Positions 5,476 to 13,677 are shown, counted from the first letter of the stretch. The stretch: DNA of 64,000 nt from Leptolyngbyaceae cyanobacterium (GCA_965263355.1 CBDHHL010000032.1:1280001-1344000), one strand, 5' to 3'. Numbers and translations are program-made. Notes: generated from the letters alone by a model not told the origin.

Positions 5476-7000
5476 AGGGCAAACGCAGCTATTTAGTATA
5501 AATCGTACTTGACAGTACCTCCTTTATCTGAATTTTGACTATTTCAGAAACGTCTAACCATGCTTATGTGGGTCAGTGTCAAGCGTCCACCTCAAATGAG
5601 AGATTATGTTGCATAATCTCTCATTTGACCGTATTCAGTTCAACTCTCTTAAGTGAAAGTTTTCTCTCACTTACCCAGAAATACCCACGACATTATTCGG
5701 TTATATCAATCATGAGAAGACTTAACAAATAATTGTTATCCAATGCTGCCCGATACCGTTTTATCTTAATGCTACCTTTGGTCGAATCTTGTTTGATGAC
5801 ACTCACACACAAGCGACGTAGTAATCCCATATTCTCTGGCCCATGGCCTTTTCGAATCCGACTATTATCTTCTTTGAAGGTCACATCTAGGACCCAATGC
5901 AGACTATTTTCAATGCTCCAATGAGACCGTATTGATTGAGCAAATACCGTCGCATTTGCCGTCATGCTGCTGATATAAAAATGTATCTGTTCTTCTTCTT
6001 TGTTCTGTAAAATTCGTTTGCGACGCACCATGACAATACTCGTTAACCCCGTCCATTTCTCTCGATTCCATAGATTCGGTACCTGCTCGATGGGAACCAC
6101 CCAAGTCTGACGATGTTCTATTCGATGATGTGCCGACTCAGTGCTGCTCGTATAGTCATACTCAATCCCTTGCCAGTCATTGGCTATCGCCTCTTCAAAA
6201 AAGTGTTTAACCCCCTGATAAAGCGTGTCTTGATTGGCTTTAAGCGCTAAAATATAGTCTCCTCCTCCGGCAACGATTTGCGCCGCAATCGCCGTTTGAG
6301 TCCCCATGGCATCTAGGGTGATGATAGTCCCCTCTAGCGACAACATCTCCAACACCTCGGGAATCGCCGTAATCTCATTCGATTTACTATCGACCCGTTG
6401 CTGAGCTAGCACAAGGTGATGCTCTGAGGCCCATGCACTCACACTATGCAGCGCCTTGAGTCCGGTCTGTGTGTCTCTAGACCCACGATGCGTTTTGCCA
6501 TCAATATGGATTAATTTGATCGACAACTGAGTCGTTATTTGCTCTATCCATTTTAAGAAAAACGCTTCAAACTGATGGGGGGCAAGTTGGGCAAAGACTC
6601 TTGAAAAGGTATCGTGGGACGGAATCCCATGGGGCAACTCTAAAAACGTTGATAACCACTCATGTTTCGAATTGCCGTAGGTTTCCACGGCCTCCATCGT
6701 GTCGGCTCCACATATGGTTGCCAAAATCGCAATCGTTACAATATCAACCAGCAGATGGAGTGGTTTTCGTTTCGTGCGCGGATCGTCCAAACCGTTGATC
6801 TCATTGAGAATACTGGTTTTGATCACTTTAGCTGGTGATGAACTTGACCGACTTGGGGAACGTCCAAATCCTTGAGGCATTGGCTGACATCATTAGGAAA
6901 CACGACGTACACCTTACCTTACATGCTCTATGACGAGATCACCTCGAAGCCGACTCATTCTGTCAAGTACATTGGATACAAAATAAGTGCGTTTACCCTA
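5475..7000 (-). mobile_element. ISAs1-family insertion sequence
   Basis: Imperfect ~40-bp terminal inverted repeats. Left: AGGGCAAACGCAGCTATTTAGTATAAATCGTACTTGACAG (5476-5515). Right (reverse complement of 6960-6999): AGGGTAAACGCACTTATTTTGTATCCAATGTACTTGACAG. Encloses a transposase. Confidence 0.9.
5693..6880 (-). CDS. ISAs1-family DDE transposase
   Basis: DPR...H, GIPSHDTF, IDGK, KSNEI, DAMGTQ, LKANQ and HWSIENSLHWVLDVTFKED motifs. Confidence 0.95.
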   Translation of the reverse strand: MPQGFGRSPSRSSSSPAKVIKTSILNEINGLDDPRTKRKPLHLLVDIVTIAILATICGADTMEAVETYGNSKHEWLSTFLELPHGIPSHDTFSRVFAQLAPHQFEAFFLKWIEQITTQLSIKLIHIDGKTHRGSRDTQTGLKALHSVSAWASEHHLVLAQQRVDSKSNEITAIPEVLEMLSLEGTIITLDAMGTQTAIAAQIVAGGGDYILALKANQDTLYQGVKHFFEEAIANDWQGIEYDYTSSTESAHHRIEHRQTWVVPIEQVPNLWNREKWTGLTSIVMVRRKRILQNKEEEQIHFYISSMTANATVFAQSIRSHWSIENSLHWVLDVTFKEDNSRIRKGHGPENMGLLRRLCVSVIKQDSTKGSIKIKRYRAALDNNYLLSLLMIDITE

Positions 7001-7313: not shown

Positions 7314-7650
7314 ACCTCAGTACGGGATAAGAAATGGAGGGGTTGAGTAAGCTGAAAAAACAAAAAACATTCAGCTAGCCCCTCCTATGTCCAGTTTAAA
7401 AGAGCTTTTCTGTCAGATTGATGACTTTTGCCAAATCTTTGAACCTCAGTGGCAGGCCACGCTCATTAGCAACGGAGTGCGCCATCGTCATCGGCAACGC
7501 TTAATGAGCTTAAGTAAAATCATGACGATTCTGGTGAGCTTTCATCAACAGTCGTATCGTAATTTCAAGCATTTCTACCAAAAGCATGTCTGTTGCTATT
7601 GGCGTCGTGAGTTTCCAGGCCTCCCCAGTTATCAACGGTTTATTGATTAA
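7314..7650 (+). mobile_element. IS982-family remnant (left end plus 5' transposase fragment 7387-7650)
   Basis: LFCQIDDFC, SLSKIMTILVSFHQ..YRNFKHFY and FP.LPSYQRF are typical of the IS982 transposase N-terminus. An ACC-starting end lies upstream. Confidence 0.8.
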
Positions 7651-7964
7651 TGGAAGATAGCAGAGATATTTCCAAAATAAGGCGTAGGCTACTGTGCAAA
7701 ATGGGATATCGCTTTGACAGAGAGACTGGGAAATTTCTTGGTCAGGAGGTAAACGGGAAACTTTACAAATCAGGGGAGATGGCCCCTGCATGGAACCCGA
7801 TCAAGGGGAACTTTTTGAAAGAAGTGACCGAGCCTGAGGTTCCAGAATCTGAGCGCCCAGAAATTGGGAAGATAGATGAGTCTTGGCTCCACAGCTGTCC
7901 CATGCCTCGAAAGACTCTGAGGGGCGTCAATAAAGATCTTTTCCCAGACACTCGTGCTAATTGA
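7650..7964 (+). CDS. Hypothetical protein or fragment
   Basis: 104-aa ORF between two transposase remnants; no recognised motif. Confidence 0.3.
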   Translation: MEDSRDISKIRRRLLCKMGYRFDRETGKFLGQEVNGKLYKSGEMAPAWNPIKGNFLKEVTEPEVPESERPEIGKIDESWLHSCPMPRKTLRGVNKDLFPDTRAN

Positions 7965-7988: not shown

Positions 7989-8486
7989 ATGACATCGCTA
8001 TCAGAGGTTTTATTGCTTGTGCCCCTTGGCCGATCAGATGGCTTCGAGAAAACGGATTACAGACGAGTGCTCAATACACTCCGTTATATCCACGCTAATC
8101 CGAAAGCAGCGGGAATGCAGCGAGGGTTCTTTTATGATTTCTCCAACTATGGCAGCTACGATCGCCTCAAAGATGACGGTCTGACGGAATGGCATCCTGC
8201 CTTTTTATCACTGGGAGAATCGTTGGATGAATGTGCGAAAGAATATCGCAAGTTTTGCAAACGCTACAAACCCAAACCCAAGTCAGAAAAACGTAGCTTT
8301 TGGGGAAGTAAATTGCTACCCAAAGTGTTGAAAGCGTCGGAACGGAAGAAACGATCGCCAGGTCAACTGCGACTACTGTGGGATGACTGGAAACCGACTC
8401 AAGAGGTTCGCAACGTCGCTGAACAATTTGTTATGGCCAATTGCTATGACCCCAAAGTCGCTGCCCAGTTTTTTAATGACTCGTAG
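7989..8486 (+). pseudogene. REP-associated tyrosine transposase (RAYT / Y1 HUH), C-terminal half
   Basis: LNTLRYIHANPKAAG...FSNY matches the catalytic-Tyr YI..NP motif of RAYTs. The N-terminal HUH part is absent. Confidence 0.7.
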
Positions 8487-8496
8487 CGATGAAGAG

Positions 8497-8653
8497 CGCT
8501 ATCCGTTGGCCTGGACAGTATAAGGGGATACCAAATCTCTCACTGATGACGGATAGCGGAACAGTGCCAGGTAACGAATGGGTAAAAAGCCGATGAATAC
8601 GTAGAGAAGATCATCTGAATATAGCTTGACAAGCGACCTGAAGTCCTTATATG
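8497..8653. other. Structured non-coding element between the RAYT remnant and the GUN4-domain gene
   Basis: Perfect 10-bp inverted repeat CGCTATCCGT (8497-8506) / ACGGATAGCG (8549-8558) with inner stems. Palindrome GCTTG-A-CAAGC at 8624-8634. Confidence 0.55.
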
Positions 8654-11572
8654 TTACAGGTTACAGTTCGCAATGCGAGAGAAGACCACCACCAACCCCG
8701 ACACCCCACCAACCACCCCACACCCAGGACCATCACCCGCGCCCCCACCACTCGAGAAAAGCCGGGAGATGGGCTTCAGGGGCACTCAAGTCATTCCCAC
8801 TAACTCCCTCTGACCATGTCAGTTCGTCGTAGTTAAGAAAATATATTTCGTCAGACAAGCCATCCGAGTCCAGCCGATCTCTTCTATGAACTTAATCCAG
8901 GCTGCTTCATTATACTGCCCTGGTGTATTGCCTGTTGCCAAAAACCTATTTTTCTGAACGCTAAAACCATAACGCCCCTCAGAATGATCAGACCAGAGGG
9001 TGTCCACCTTTCGCAAATGGTCGCAGGCGATATTCGAATACAAAAAACTCAAATCCCTGGAATATGCTGACGATAAAAGCGCATCCCAAGTCAGCCCATC
9101 GGCGTCTCGCCACCGATGCTCCTCCAAAGCTTGATCTAGCTCCCGAATCAATTGCTTCGCTCGAAAGTCATGGTGTTTTTTTAGGGCAGCAGTGACTAAT
9201 GCGCGCAATTGATTGCCCTCTGAATTATCAGATAAGGGAACCCTCAGCAATTGGTCGAAGGAGTTTGCAATGTTCTCTGAATTAAAGTTTGGTGTTTCAG
9301 AGATGTAGCCGAAGGCTTGTTCATAGGATGCGTAAGCACTGGGCAGCTCTTCTTGCTCTTCCTGTAAATTTCCCTGAACTGCATAGGTAAAGAATGCGAT
9401 CTCTCGCCCCGACTTTGATTGAAATACATCAGGATTGTTTTGGATCAACCCATCGCTTTCATCGATCAGGGTTTGTGCCTTACTAATTTGCTTTTGTGCT
9501 TCTCCACTGAAGTCATCTGACGGAAACGGAATGAGATGGAGGTGAGCCAGGGCAGTACCACTCTTTAAGAGAGCTTGTTTCAAGTCAGAACTATCCTCTG
9601 TAAACTCGGTAAACGATAAACCAATCTGTTGAATAACATCATCGGCAGCTTCAGACTTATCAATGACGTGGAGGTCGTCGATGAGACCCGAGAGTGCTTT
9701 AGTGGTTTCATTCAGGGCGGCAATTTCTTTTTGCTCTCGTTGAGCTACGTCCAGTTTACGTTGAGCCTCTTGTTCTGCCTGTTCCGCTTGGGCTACAGCA
9801 GCATCAGCATTGGCTAAGTTTTGCTCAAGCTGTGCCAGTAACGTCTGCTGCTCTTGGGTCGCTTGCTGGGCTTGTTTCAGTTGCTCTTCTGCCGCTTGAC
9901 GCTGTGTTTCGGCATCTTGCAGTTCCTCCTGAGATTGCGCTACTTCTTCCTCGGCTGCAGTCAATTCATCGCGAGCTTGAGTCAAGGCTTGTTCGGCGTC
10001 ATCTTTTTTTTGTTGAATTTCGGTTAACTCTTTCTCCGCCGCTGTAGCTTTGATTTCAGCCTCTTCAGTTAGGGTCTCAGCCTTTTTAAGCCGCTGATTC
10101 GCCTCATGCACTTGCTTTCCTGAAAATAGAGCCAATCCTCCGAACACGAGAGCTGTGACCAGCGTACCGCTTAACACTAAACTCCCTCGGCGAATCTTCC
10201 GTTGAGCCTGCCGATTGGCTTGTGCCTGAATCTGCTCAGCGGCTTCGGCAGCTTCTCGGGCCGCTTTTTCCCGTGCCAGTTCAGCTTCTTCTTCTTGCTG
10301 TTGGATACGCGAAGCTGACAAAAACTCCTGATCTTCGATACTGGGGCTTCTCTCTACGGCCCATTGCTCCGCCTCTGCCAGAGCCTCTCCACGCAACAAT
10401 CGGGACCTGTCTGTTTTGCCTGACGAAATCCAAGCACGAAAACTTTCCGAGTAGGGGCGCAATTTTTTTAATTCCGCATCAATCCACACCTCGTCAAAGA
10501 CAGCCGCATAAATCGGGTTATAGACCTGGAGTAGGCCATCACGTTTAACCACCAACCCTGCCAGTTGCAACTCCCGCTCTTCTAGTCGATTCTGAGCCGA
10601 TAGTGACCCCAACTGCCGAATCTGGCGATACAACTCCAACAAATATCCGGCTTTTTGCTCGTTATCCAGCAGACGTTTGCGAATGGTCTTCAGGTGTTCC
10701 TGATGGTCTTGCGATTCCCACTGCTCAATCACCTGAGAGCGCACTAATCCTTCGACTGCCGTTGGTTCACTGCCCTCAGTGATCGGAAATTTAGAATCCA
10801 CCACCAATTGACAGACCCGTTGGGTAAGAAAGGGTTGTCCACCGGTCCAGTGCAAGATTTCCTGTAACACCACCGGGGGACGATCCGCCTTTACTGCCAA
10901 TCCAGCTGCCAGGGGCAAGGCTTCCTCGACGTCAAACCCTTTCAGGTTAATGGCCTTGCCAATATTAAACGGTGTTCGCTTGACATCCCCAATCAACTCC
11001 GATGGCATGGCCACACCAAACAAAGCCAGGGTCAACCGTTGATAGTCTGGATTTTCTGCCCGCTTGTTATAGCAGGCGCGAATTAGGGCAAAAAAGTCGT
11101 CGGTAAAGGGCAGAGTGATGGTGCTATCAATCTCGTCAATCAAAATCACAATGGAGCGATCGATACCCGGCAAGAGCACCGTCTCGATAAATTCTCCTAA
11201 CCGTTCCACCGGAGCAATAAAATCCCGCTCTTTCAACCACTGACGAAATGTCTGACGATCAAGCAATTTCAATTCACGATTCAGTTGATTGATAATCCCG
11301 GCATACCAGCGGTCGGGCTGATCCGATTGGCTATCTTTAGCGGAAAAATCCAGAATCACTCCCGTCCAACCAGCTGCTCGCAATCGGGTTAGCGTCCGCA
11401 CCATCAGACTCGATTTACCCATCTGCCGCGAATTTAAGACGTAGCAGAATTCCCCCGCTTTCAGGGCGTCATACAAGTCATCATCACTGCCACGCGTCAC
11501 ATAGGAGGGCACATCCTGCGGTAAAGCACCCCCAACTTTATAGAAGCGGTTGGACAGAGGGGCGTCACTCAT
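8654..11572 (-). CDS. AAA_35 ATPase - TM helix - coiled coil - GUN4-domain protein, with compensating frameshifts in the 3' end (called ORF stops at 8819)
   Basis: NSRQMGKSS, ILIDEID, TPFNIG, GGQPFLTQ, then a TM segment and coiled coil. GUN4 motifs WRDAD..T and D.LW...S.GRYGFSVQK. The -1 frame continues LSAPEAHLP, and the original frame ends FSRIANCNL* at 8654. Confidence 0.8.
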
Positions 11573-13677
11573 GCCAGACTCCTTAAGCGTGAACGAAAAT
11601 AGGGACGATACAGTCGATCATGGCGCAATACCACAGCATTGCCTTGCAATGTCACCAGTCCCATGCCATTGAGTTTAAAGCCAAGTATCGGCCTTAGCTC
11701 CACCGGGCGATCCGTCATAATCACTTGCTCAAACGCTGTGGCCAAGTCGGGATGTTGTTGTAAATTCCATAGGTGTCGTCGCAGATGTTCGCCATAAATC
11801 CCTCCATCGGTGGGAGCGTCTGTTAGCAGTTCCGGTAACGTCATATCCTGTTGCGCTAGATGATACAGTGCCAGACGCACCAGATAGGGATGTCCCCCCA
11901 CCATATCCATCAACGCCTCCACGTCACCCGTGCCCCAACGTAAGCCATGCTTGTCCACCAACTCCAGCACCTGCGCAACACTAAACTCGGGCAGGTCCAC
12001 TGCCAGACCCACATTAAAGGGTGATGAATTCGTATCCAAGACCACATAGGATTCGGTGGAATGGGCGATTGCCATCCGCAGCTTAGCCCAGGTGTCATTC
12101 ACCTTGGCTTTTTCATTCCAGGACCGCAACAGAGTCAGAAATTCTTTCGAGACCGTTTCATAGGGAAACAGGCGATCCAGTTCGTCCAGCCCCAAGAATA
12201 AAGGTGCATCGAGCGTCGATAATAACTCCTCTTCAAAATAGTCGCTACAGTTTTCTTTGGGACCAAACAAGTCTTCGTCCCAACAGTCTTTTACCCGTTT
12301 GGGAGATAGCCCCAATTGCTTACTGACCGACGCACAAAATCGTTTCAAAAACACACTGGCATCGGTAAATGCTCGTTCATCGGTCTCTAAAAATGAGATC
12401 GTCACCGGGTGATAGCCCAACTGGACGGCATGATCTCGAATCCTAGCCAGCAGAGAGGTTTTACCCATTTGCCGGGGTGCTTTGATTCGCACCAGTCCAG
12501 CCCTATGGTTAATCTCTTGCAAGCAGCGCGTGTCCAAGGGTTCACGCCGGATATAAAATTCGGAATTCAGCGGCATCGTGCCACTGGGCAGCTCCAGATC
12601 AGCAACGGGCAGTGGTGGTCCCTTGGCAGTTGGTATTGCACCAGGAGTTGGTTCCGCTGCAATCGGTTCTGGCACTCTACCCTCAACAATCAATTCCGTC
12701 AGCTCTTGCACCAGGCAAGGGGTATCAGCAGGCGATTGCCAGTCTGACTGGGGGATGGTTTGCAACGCCCGCCACAATTCTGAATGGAGGGGATAATCGT
12801 GGGGTAAATTAACCCGAATTGGCAATATCACGGGTCTCTCCCGTTGCTCCCACATTTGCCGTGCCGTTTGCACTTCCCCGGCGACCCGGTCACTACCAGC
12901 TAAGGGCTCAGACAGTAACAGCAGCAGGTAATCACAGCGTCGCAATTCCTGATCAATCTGGGTGACCTGCTGGAGTCCATCAGCCACCAGCACTGGAGTA
13001 TGTCCCGCTGTTTTTAGACGGTCATGGAAGGCTTGCGCCAGAGTGACCTCGGATGCTTGATTCCGATAGCGAATGAACACGCGCTGCCCTGTAGTAGGAT
13101 CATCCGTCGCTGCGGATGGCCCTAACCAGACTGGGGTGTGTTGCTCTGGAATTCCCGCCAGTTGAATCGCATTACAGCCAAATTTATAGGCCCTTTCATA
13201 GGGCTTACCCGCTCCCAGAGCATCATAGAACCCCACGGCAAACTCGATAGCCGCCCGGTCGCCAATGGCATTTGTCATACCAATCACGTAGGGAATGTGC
13301 TGGGCAATAGCTGTCGCCTGTTCCTGGGAATAGCAGGCATTGAGCAGGACACACTCCACCTGATCGGCCACAAGTTCGAACAGCCCAGACAAGGCTTCCC
13401 CATTGACGAATTTTGCTTGCCCCGTCTTATCTTCAAAGACCAGCCCCTCTTCACCTGCGCCGTGTCCTGAAAAATGGATAATATGGGGTTCGTGGCGGAG
13501 TATTGATCGGCGTAAATCTCGATAGCGTAATGCCGTAGCTGTCTCGATAGTAAATTGCGATCGCTGCTTGGCACGGAGGAGTCCTTCCTCAATCTCCCGC
13601 ATTTCCTCATCCAGACGCACCTTGGGAGTGCCCTGAGGATTCGCAGATAACAGTAAGATTTTGCGGAAATCGCTCAT
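11569..13677 (-). CDS. CHAT protease - TIR-like - AAA_35 ATPase protein
   Basis: HFSGHG / LNACYS His-Cys dyad. TIR-like segment RVFIRY...CDYLLLLLS...EV. KAPRQMGKTS, LDELD, SPFNVG. Overlaps the next gene's start by 4 bp. Confidence 0.85.
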   Translation of the reverse strand: MSDFRKILLLSANPQGTPKVRLDEEMREIEEGLLRAKQRSQFTIETATALRYRDLRRSILRHEPHIIHFSGHGAGEEGLVFEDKTGQAKFVNGEALSGLFELVADQVECVLLNACYSQEQATAIAQHIPYVIGMTNAIGDRAAIEFAVGFYDALGAGKPYERAYKFGCNAIQLAGIPEQHTPVWLGPSAATDDPTTGQRVFIRYRNQASEVTLAQAFHDRLKTAGHTPVLVADGLQQVTQIDQELRRCDYLLLLLSEPLAGSDRVAGEVQTARQMWEQRERPVILPIRVNLPHDYPLHSELWRALQTIPQSDWQSPADTPCLVQELTELIVEGRVPEPIAAEPTPGAIPTAKGPPLPVADLELPSGTMPLNSEFYIRREPLDTRCLQEINHRAGLVRIKAPRQMGKTSLLARIRDHAVQLGYHPVTISFLETDERAFTDASVFLKRFCASVSKQLGLSPKRVKDCWDEDLFGPKENCSDYFEEELLSTLDAPLFLGLDELDRLFPYETVSKEFLTLLRSWNEKAKVNDTWAKLRMAIAHSTESYVVLDTNSSPFNVGLAVDLPEFSVAQVLELVDKHGLRWGTGDVEALMDMVGGHPYLVRLALYHLAQQDMTLPELLTDAPTDGGIYGEHLRRHLWNLQQHPDLATAFEQVIMTDRPVELRPILGFKLNGMGLVTLQGNAVVLRHDRLYRPYFRSRLRSLA

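Follow-up and report, generated by a model that had tools for sequence, protein, structure and literature searches.

A diversifying role for a transposase-like nuclease has already been proposed in marine picocyanobacteria for procA and tnpA_REP (Laurenceau et al., bioRxiv 10.1101/2020.03.09.984088), which lie tail to tail and have a conserved spacer and an indel-rich 3' variable region, and according to the same preprint the closest cyanobacterial relatives of tnpA_REP do not colocalize with lanthipeptide genes. Here we analyze a stretch of 64,000 nucleotides from a Leptolyngbyaceae cyanobacterium (GCA_965263355.1, CBDHHL010000032.1:1280001-1344000; hereafter the window), in which a gene with a 3'-terminal GUN4 domain ends in a G/T-rich segment and is faced by the remnant of a gene from a nuclease clade that also contains tnpA_REP (45-51% identity). 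We interpret this segment as an allele of a hypervariable insert that takes the place of the GUN4 ligand loop, and a domesticated Y1 (HUH) nuclease, whose gene lies tail to tail with the GUN4 gene, as the probable agent of its rewriting. Layout, conserved spacer and variable region are all shared with procA, where the ATACCTGGCAC motif described below was also found in the present analysis; the main text of the preprint names no GUN4 or cyanobactin target, motif, antisense promoter or three-frame tail.

The nuclease itself resembles TnpA-Y1 subclass 2.1, RAYT group 1 and TIRYT as characterized in the available text of PMC6006769, PMC3733652 and PMC5581495, with which it shares a length of about 250 residues, the NHVH, WE and YIH.NP motifs, a C-terminal extension and the lack of REP-like hairpins; subclass 2.1 of Quentin et al. 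is likewise described as being without REPs (PMC6006769). Inspection by eye of the 130 nt upstream of the nuclease genes showed no conserved end and no terminal inverted repeats of the TIRYT kind; the features that were seen are a single motif on the downstream side, a promoter and a coding segment that varies. The TIRYT consensus GGGGWSAS is nonetheless resembled by the GGTGCCAG motif and by certain GGGGACAC left flanks. REPtrons, as far as the available text on E. coli TnpA-REP goes (PDB 4ER8; PMC8266576), are alike in their Y1 fold, in a match to NF047646 that stays under its cut-off, and in a CT-rich right border with GTA(A/G) after it, but our module has no conserved hairpin or dispersed repeat family and would act on one coding loop. 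It also differs from IS200/IS605, having no hairpin ends and encoding a 250-aa protein rather than a TnpA of about 150 aa, on which the IS200 model scores 23 bits against a cut-off of 55.

Cyanobacterial diversity-generating retroelements (DGRs), in the available text of PMC7517822, similarly place a hypervariable 3' tip on a ligand-binding domain within AAA, kinase, CHAT or TIR sensor architectures, and GUN4 is known there as the N-terminal domain of DGR targets; elsewhere it is known as an effector domain in conflict systems. The module described here differs from DGRs in having no linked reverse transcriptase, template, length conservation or adenine specificity, and in its variable domain being GUN4 and not CLec. 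Finally, for the sph (PMC6162287) and art (PMC4663559) cyanobactin clusters hypervariable cores are reported, as is a transposase located between the E and F genes, and the available accounts neither give the transposase a role nor link the two; the clade membership reported below is that of the nucleases which we collected at cyanobactin loci. A literature search that did not extend to subscription journals found no paper describing the GUN4 module, its motif or its promoter.

Hypervariable inserts at the ends of GUN4 genes

The initial annotation had pointed to a 79-nt stretch with only two adenines near the end of the GUN4 gene, and it is there as described: positions 8684-8762 of the minus strand, with the codons for HLP on one side and for FSRIANCNL and a stop on the other, comprise 44 G, 24 T, 9 C and 2 A. 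No other 79-mer in the window, whichever strand is read, is as poor in adenine (binomial P=1.2e-8, or 0.0015 over 128,000 positions). The accompanying suggestion that the interval is hypervariable between conserved flanks is borne out by comparison of gene ends, since 22 of the 23 pairs with at least 90% identical flanks carry unrelated inserts, and full replacement of the insert is seen at 97-99% flank identity. One example is P0002, an intact and near-identical relative whose letters agree with those of the window protein along most of the sequence and throughout the GUN4 core; it has the same HLPA and FSRIANCNL flanks, and yet ends in an unrelated tip. Among eight Cylindrospermopsis-type tips, which come from a single plasmid and a pair of related genomes, the flanks agree almost base for base and the tips are all completely different. 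The corresponding loop of canonical GUN4 (ycf53), GHLPL.N.LRGVR, is by comparison fixed in 5/5 genomes.

A similar picture emerges from a contig of sequencing run X1 when aligned to positions 8039-8846 of the window. All 12 substitutions fall within 8689-8744, and of the 26 letters by which the contig is shorter at least 14 are missing at 8691-8739. Depths of 5-6 on the window-specific flanks and 12-14 on the alternative flanks suggest that run X1 holds two copies or strains, one of them with an intact transposase; for X1 and a second run, X2, the comparison was made with contigs, and cover breaks at the tip in X2 were not counted as evidence.

To describe the inserts as a class we used a set of 90, from which four mis-anchored or duplicated rows had been removed and, at an earlier stage, loci without the anchor or HLP motif. 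They range from 19 to 255 nt (median 68) and consist of.365 G,.325 T,.175 A and.136 C, with the same composition at codon positions 1-3. The depletion is therefore not specific to adenine, as had initially been thought, because A and C are both low and the bias is towards G+T. In-frame stops number 24, as against 80 and 100 in the other two frames, which argues that the tip product is under selection. Direct duplications, drawn from the left flank or from the insert itself, occur in 14/90 and 16/90 inserts where 2.2 would be expected. Inverted matches to the flanks are not enriched, so fold-back templating was rejected, as was a fixed short template of the telomerase kind, since the 37 inserts richest in G/T are near first-order random (best 6-mer z 3.7). 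For none of the eight inserts tested in their own genomes was a second genomic copy found.

The borders of the insert are sharp, with CC|N, inside a Pro codon, at the left and the CT-rich tail at the right. The tail is entered in every frame (41/25/24 among the 90 inserts), and of 94 tails 83% close all three frames inside 45 nt, compared with 20% of shuffles. In each of these three frames the tail codes for the last helix of the GUN4 fold. A model of the GUN4 domain of the relative L041 (predicted local distance difference test score, pLDDT, 92.3) matches the GUN4-porphyrin type structure 4XKC (TM 0.87, E 4.9e-9) and shows the insert as a low-confidence loop preceding that helix. In Synechocystis GUN4, Pro208 is needed for folding and Leu209-Arg217 is porphyrin-binding, with Arg214 and Arg217 in a fixed loop (available text of PMC1084334). 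When mapped by motif spacing, the insert appears to begin right after Pro208 and to replace Leu209-Arg217. The canonical porphyrin-binding loop is absent from insert-bearing GUN4 and the insert stands in its place.

The facing nuclease and the element downstream of GUN4

The convergent end of a RAYT-type transposase noted initially was confirmed as a Y1 fragment at 8031-8480 that shares 64% identity with residues 104-253 of a full-length PF01797 protein; about 103 N-terminal residues are gone, the HUH motif among them. Members of the clade match PF01797 with E 2e-15 and 1e-17, and 77 of 80 homologues have NH[VI]H and 79 have YIH.NP. The gene is under strong purifying selection, with a median ratio of nonsynonymous to synonymous rates (dN/dS) of 0.063 over 64 pairs. 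The top Foldseek ranks obtained with a low-confidence model of the protein (pLDDT 53) are all Y1 transposases (E 0.007-0.05), while a sequence search of the PDB gave no match; NF047646 is matched by 37/37 members, at 66 bits against a cut-off of 80.

The expectation that this transposase clade would be repeatedly adjacent to GUN4 also held. When a full-length homologue was used to collect 80 loci, 68 of them proved to have a GUN4 gene running towards the nuclease at a distance of up to about 1 kb, and of the remaining 12 four are limited by the contig and four retain the downstream element. The nuclease is present in 40 of 401 evenly sampled cyanobacterial genomes; among the 26 non-picocyanobacterial loci collected from this sample, 20 face GUN4 and three face cyanobactin precursors. 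A quick tree, built with 28 randomly chosen GUN4-type rows and without 13 loci lacking GUN4, indicates that nuclease clades track target class and that the window fragment nests among GUN4-type genes; one row, L195, was tagged as cyanobactin by similarity and has no precursor facing it. Carriage of the module by phages was considered and dropped, as viral contigs gave no match.

The region between the two genes had been described as a structured multi-hairpin element. Its conservation is real, extending over about 130 nt in both sequence and spacing (window copy, E 8e-25), and the 10-bp inverted repeat is present, but the hairpin fold is not supported. Folding of 8487-8655 is no better than that of shuffles (z -0.70 as DNA, -0.22 as RNA), the anticipated covariation amounts to 0 consensus pairs in 20 aligned elements, Rfam returns 0 matches for the downstream region, and the 10-bp stem falls outside the conserved block; a hairpin or structured-RNA reading of 8497-8653 was rejected on these grounds. 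The palindrome GCTTGACAAGC does exist at 8624-8634, though incidentally, the conserved core being the -35 box TTGACA of a promoter directed into the variable region. At one and the same register, 34/64 elements reach a promoter score of at least 8/12, compared with 3.1% elsewhere.

Published data from Trichodesmium bear on this promoter. The elements were located first and the start-site table (PMC4143802 Table S1) was searched afterwards. The two Trichodesmium GUN4 genes that face a nuclease both have a listed antisense start at the tail, 4045428 (-) with 17,070 reads and 265757 (-) with 824 reads, the chance of a published start falling at the element being about 0.008 for each of them, and likewise for the trichamide start given below. 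By register with these, an antisense start in the window is predicted near 8664-8667.

A second conserved feature of the element is the motif GTGCCAGGTA(T/A)CG, found in 50/90 GUN4 ends, of which 44 have it ending 101-102 nt from the anchor, and only once in the 64-kb window. This GTGCCAGGTATCG motif sits about 120 nt from the insert. The GTGCCAGGTATC motif is likely a recognition site of the nuclease, albeit a putative one.

The same nuclease clade and motif also face procA (L172), a picocyanobacterial gene tip and cyanobactin precursors. The picocyanobacterial target comprises 11 loci (L173-L184; genomes G131, G228, G319, G375 and G396) in which a fixed RVHD-type motif is followed by a variable tip. 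In picocyanobacteria, unlike at GUN4, most spacers contain a hairpin of terminator-like appearance, some 60 nt away from the nuclease-clade motif. The genes of these 11 loci end in NRDVRVHD or KNRNIRVHD-type sequences, their hypervariable tips often contain Cys, and the protein looks beta-barrel-like by eye; this target is not mentioned in the procA preprint (Laurenceau et al., bioRxiv 10.1101/2020.03.09.984088). At cyanobactin precursors (L193, L194, L197, L212-L228) the motif lies 125-132 nt past the stop, and a search pattern combining precursor end and motif finds matches in 9/401 genomes with 0 for the control. An antisense promoter is present 7-8 nt past the stop in 9/12 motif-bearing precursors and in 2/5 without the motif, and the Trichodesmium table lists an antisense start, 3646961 (+), 4 nt outside the stop of the trichamide-type precursor. 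In the cyanobactin subclade the nuclease gene's final codons extend through the motif; the element of the GUN4 type looks like a remnant of such a nuclease 3' end.

Proposed mode of rewriting and competing explanations

A model in which the nuclease rewrites the ligand loop could operate as follows. Convergent transcription would expose single-stranded DNA, and the nuclease, anchored by the motif, would nick the CT-rich tail, staying attached and protecting that side; the nick is modelled on TnpA-REP, which cuts single-stranded DNA at C|T (available text of PMC8266576). The free end would then be trimmed, refilled by largely untemplated, slippage-prone and biased host synthesis, and rejoined. 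Selection would retain those joins that spare the folding-essential Pro and are free of stops. Speaking for the model are the replacement of entire inserts between otherwise near-identical genes, their sharp borders, a G/T bias that ignores codon position, the frame-closing tail, the antisense promoter, the motif and the purifying selection on the nuclease gene. In addition, inserts in common were found only where a nuclease in cis is missing, in 8/38 close pairs as against 0/54 pairs with one.

In antibody complementarity-determining region 3 (CDR3), a domesticated transposase (RAG) together with TdT generates variable-length untemplated junctions in a binding loop, at the price of unproductive joins. 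The outcome proposed here is alike, although the enzymes are unrelated, one gene is altered instead of segments being joined, and a three-frame tail rescues the frame. To our knowledge, targeted diversifiers are few in bacteria, and we know of none that makes variable-length untemplated junctions within a coding loop. It is also quite possible, though somewhat less likely than not, that the HUH clade, the 12-bp motif and the antisense promoter constitute a general retroelement-free diversity generator of cyanobacteria, which would produce CDR3-like junctions at unrelated 3' tips, including the binding loop of immune-type GUN4 sensors, and would also be the long-sought source of hypervariability in cyanobactin and prochlorosin cores. 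As for the initial proposal of a hypervariable segment beside an HUH nuclease, hypervariability, conservation of the element and adjacency have stood, whereas the fold with its covariation, adenine specificity and a remote DGR have not.

Several observations weigh against rewriting by the nuclease. The support for its cutting, binding and rewriting is comparative throughout, and the authors of the procA-tnpA_REP study later saw no strong evidence for or against causality. Tips are often stable, the same tip being kept in four 90%-identity cluster pairs of the window's clade. The pairs compared for shared inserts are not independent, there are 4 shared-insert families, and 30/38 nuclease-less pairs differ as well; G+T content shows no difference with or without a nuclease in cis (P=0.15). 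The two tips on identical flanks represented by the X1 contig and the window do not establish within-clone variation and may reflect a second copy or strain. No enzyme is assigned to the G/T bias, and some reverse transcriptase occurs in 26/27 of the GUN4-type genomes tested. The Trichodesmium table has no antisense start for two GUN4 elements that lack a nuclease, nor for L211, a fourth motif-bearing locus. Lastly, 30 nt of one insert (L007) align at 87% identity with an intergenic repeat (E 0.0015), 15 nt of them exactly. Capture of genomic fragments was nevertheless not adopted as an explanation, seven of the eight inserts giving only chance-level matches alongside this one. The intergenic repeat in question, at L259-L263 (G385:C1, 449-532 kb), has a GTAG-tagged hairpin.

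An account that we consider unlikely holds that tail, promoter, motif and nuclease form a selfish one-ended mobile element which is directed at GUN4 ends or carried along with them. The insert would then be filler that insertion or repair leaves at the junction and that is tolerated, not favoured for its diversity. G/T-rich filler does stand ahead of elements where GUN4 is missing (L020:3391-3600, L053:5880-6050), the tail is duplicated in L064 and L155 (in the latter new filler separates the two copies), one plasmid carries several copies of the module, and 9/45 copies with an intact nuclease contain premature stops. Against this account stand a tail whose three frames all encode the final helix of the fold, the depletion of in-frame stops, a border that falls exactly at the ligand loop, nuclease clades that track target class and the recurrence of the layout on unrelated peptide genes; also, no conserved second end was seen by eye upstream of the nuclease genes. 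We give less credence again to RNA-templated rewriting, whereby an antisense RNA would be cut or C/A-tailed and a trans-acting reverse transcriptase would copy it back at the nick to yield a G/T-rich coding strand. This would account for both promoter and strand bias; the antisense RNA, which begins at the tail, has the sequence complementary to that of the coding strand, and RVT_1 is found in 28/35 genomes with the nuclease or element; the other seven, which include all five picocyanobacteria and the draft G258, where GUN4 and cyanobactin modules are both present, give no RVT_1 match, and no reverse transcriptase is linked to the locus. Moreover, a tail richer in C than in A would be unlike cyanobacterial RNA tails.

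Drift of an unconstrained surface loop by replication slippage, with protein selection enriching W, G and V and the transposase as a bystander, strikes us as very improbable. Direct repeats are indeed enriched in the inserts and the loop is of low confidence in the model, but such drift is difficult to reconcile with the absence of codon periodicity, with full replacement at 97-99% flank identity, with the fixity of the canonical loop in 5/5 genomes and with GUN4 adjacency at 68/80 loci. Slightly more improbable still is a remote target of a DGR, the alternative that the initial annotation had offered. The 3'-terminal position and low adenine would suit it, and remote targets do exist for cyanobacterial DGRs, but those published are all CLec domains in the available text of PMC7517822. 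The inserts, in contrast, vary widely in length, use every frame and are as depleted in C as in A; the template-copy search was negative for 8/8 in their own genomes, a flank-to-flank pattern had at most one match per genome in five genomes, and no other part of the window matches its tip over more than 11 nt.

Should junctional rewriting that depends on the nuclease be demonstrated, it would be new as a category. The parts of the module can be named, one small nuclease gene with one motif and one promoter, along with a defined region for the readout, and are present in cultured strains, with intact modules for example at Tery_2618 and Tery_0178 of T. erythraeum IMS101 and on the C. curvispora plasmid; the same parts adjoin cyanobactin and prochlorosin cores, so that the origin of core hypervariability becomes testable. 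The C-terminal GUN4 domains of cyanobacterial conflict systems would possibly be variable receptors instead of porphyrin sensors, and a compact loop-randomizing cassette might find use for in-cell library generation.

Anatomy of the window locus and further observations

The features of the locus are collected in the table below.

Table. Features of the GUN4-nuclease locus, in window coordinates
Feature	Position	Strand	Remarks
AAA_35, coiled coil and GUN4 gene	8819..11572	-	truncated at residue 917 by frameshift
Small multi-base patch change, source of the frameshift	8855..8864	-	X2 contig and P0002 in frame at the same spot
Remainder of GUN4 domain, out of frame, ending A-H-L-P (8774-8763)	8763..8854	-	
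Hypervariable G/T-rich insert replacing the porphyrin-binding loop	8684..8763	-	79 nt as first noted plus the Pro wobble base
Fixed tail closing the protein in three frames	8654..8685	-	FSRIANCNL, SSLALRTVTCNI or LLSHCEL, each followed by a stop
Antisense sigma70-type promoter TTGACA-18-TATGTT	8626..8655	+	directed into the variable region
Motif GTGCCAGGTA(T/A)CG	8564..8576	+	common to every target class of the nuclease clade
10-bp inverted repeat, 8497-8506/8549-8558	8497..8558	.	in non-conserved spacer; system membership not indicated
Y1/TnpA-REP-like gene, 3' half	8031..8486	+	YIHANP kept, NHVH missing
CHAT-TIR-AAA_35 upstream partner gene	11569..13677	-	conflict/sensor-type architecture

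The copy in the window is a degenerate relic, with a frameshift, a stop in the tip and a nuclease lacking its HUH half. The frameshift brings the open reading frame to its stop ahead of HLP, the insert is out of frame, and a TGA lies within it in the HLP frame; the SSLALRTVTCNI frame of the tail reaches its stop a few bases past 8654. Any action on this copy would be possible only by an intact nuclease encoded elsewhere. Contigs of runs X1 and X2 depart from the window at 8039 and continue into the missing N-terminal coding sequence. The GUN4 gene matches Pfam AAA_35 (E 8e-32) and, over its cut-off, GUN4 (PF05419, E 3e-15); a weak match to XopZ in the coiled coil (E 0.16) was disregarded, and the GUN4 core of the window found no relatives in the genome_contigs set when used as query.

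The clustered multi-base change behind the frameshift is situated about 95 nt upstream of the tip and may be a stray event of the tip-rewriting process. Within the coiled coil, at 9190-9807, contigs of X1 and X2, like P0002, carry about 613 unrelated bases instead, between near-identical flanks, and this difference is read as module swapping between paralogues. Among the inserts of other loci, the one of 255 nt at L169:1606-1860 contains a 21-bp inverted repeat and is probably a miniature mobile element. At L211:1910-2240 (G001:C1, about 1423500-1423850), a small open reading frame without annotation has the motif and a nuclease gene opposite it, and the Trichodesmium table lists for it a very strong start at 1423806 on the minus strand (247,642 reads). 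Back in the window, the expected place of the N-terminal half of the nuclease, 7387-7964, is taken by an IS982 fragment and an unassigned open reading frame of 104 aa, and an apparently intact DDE_Tnp_1 transposase is encoded at 5693-6880.

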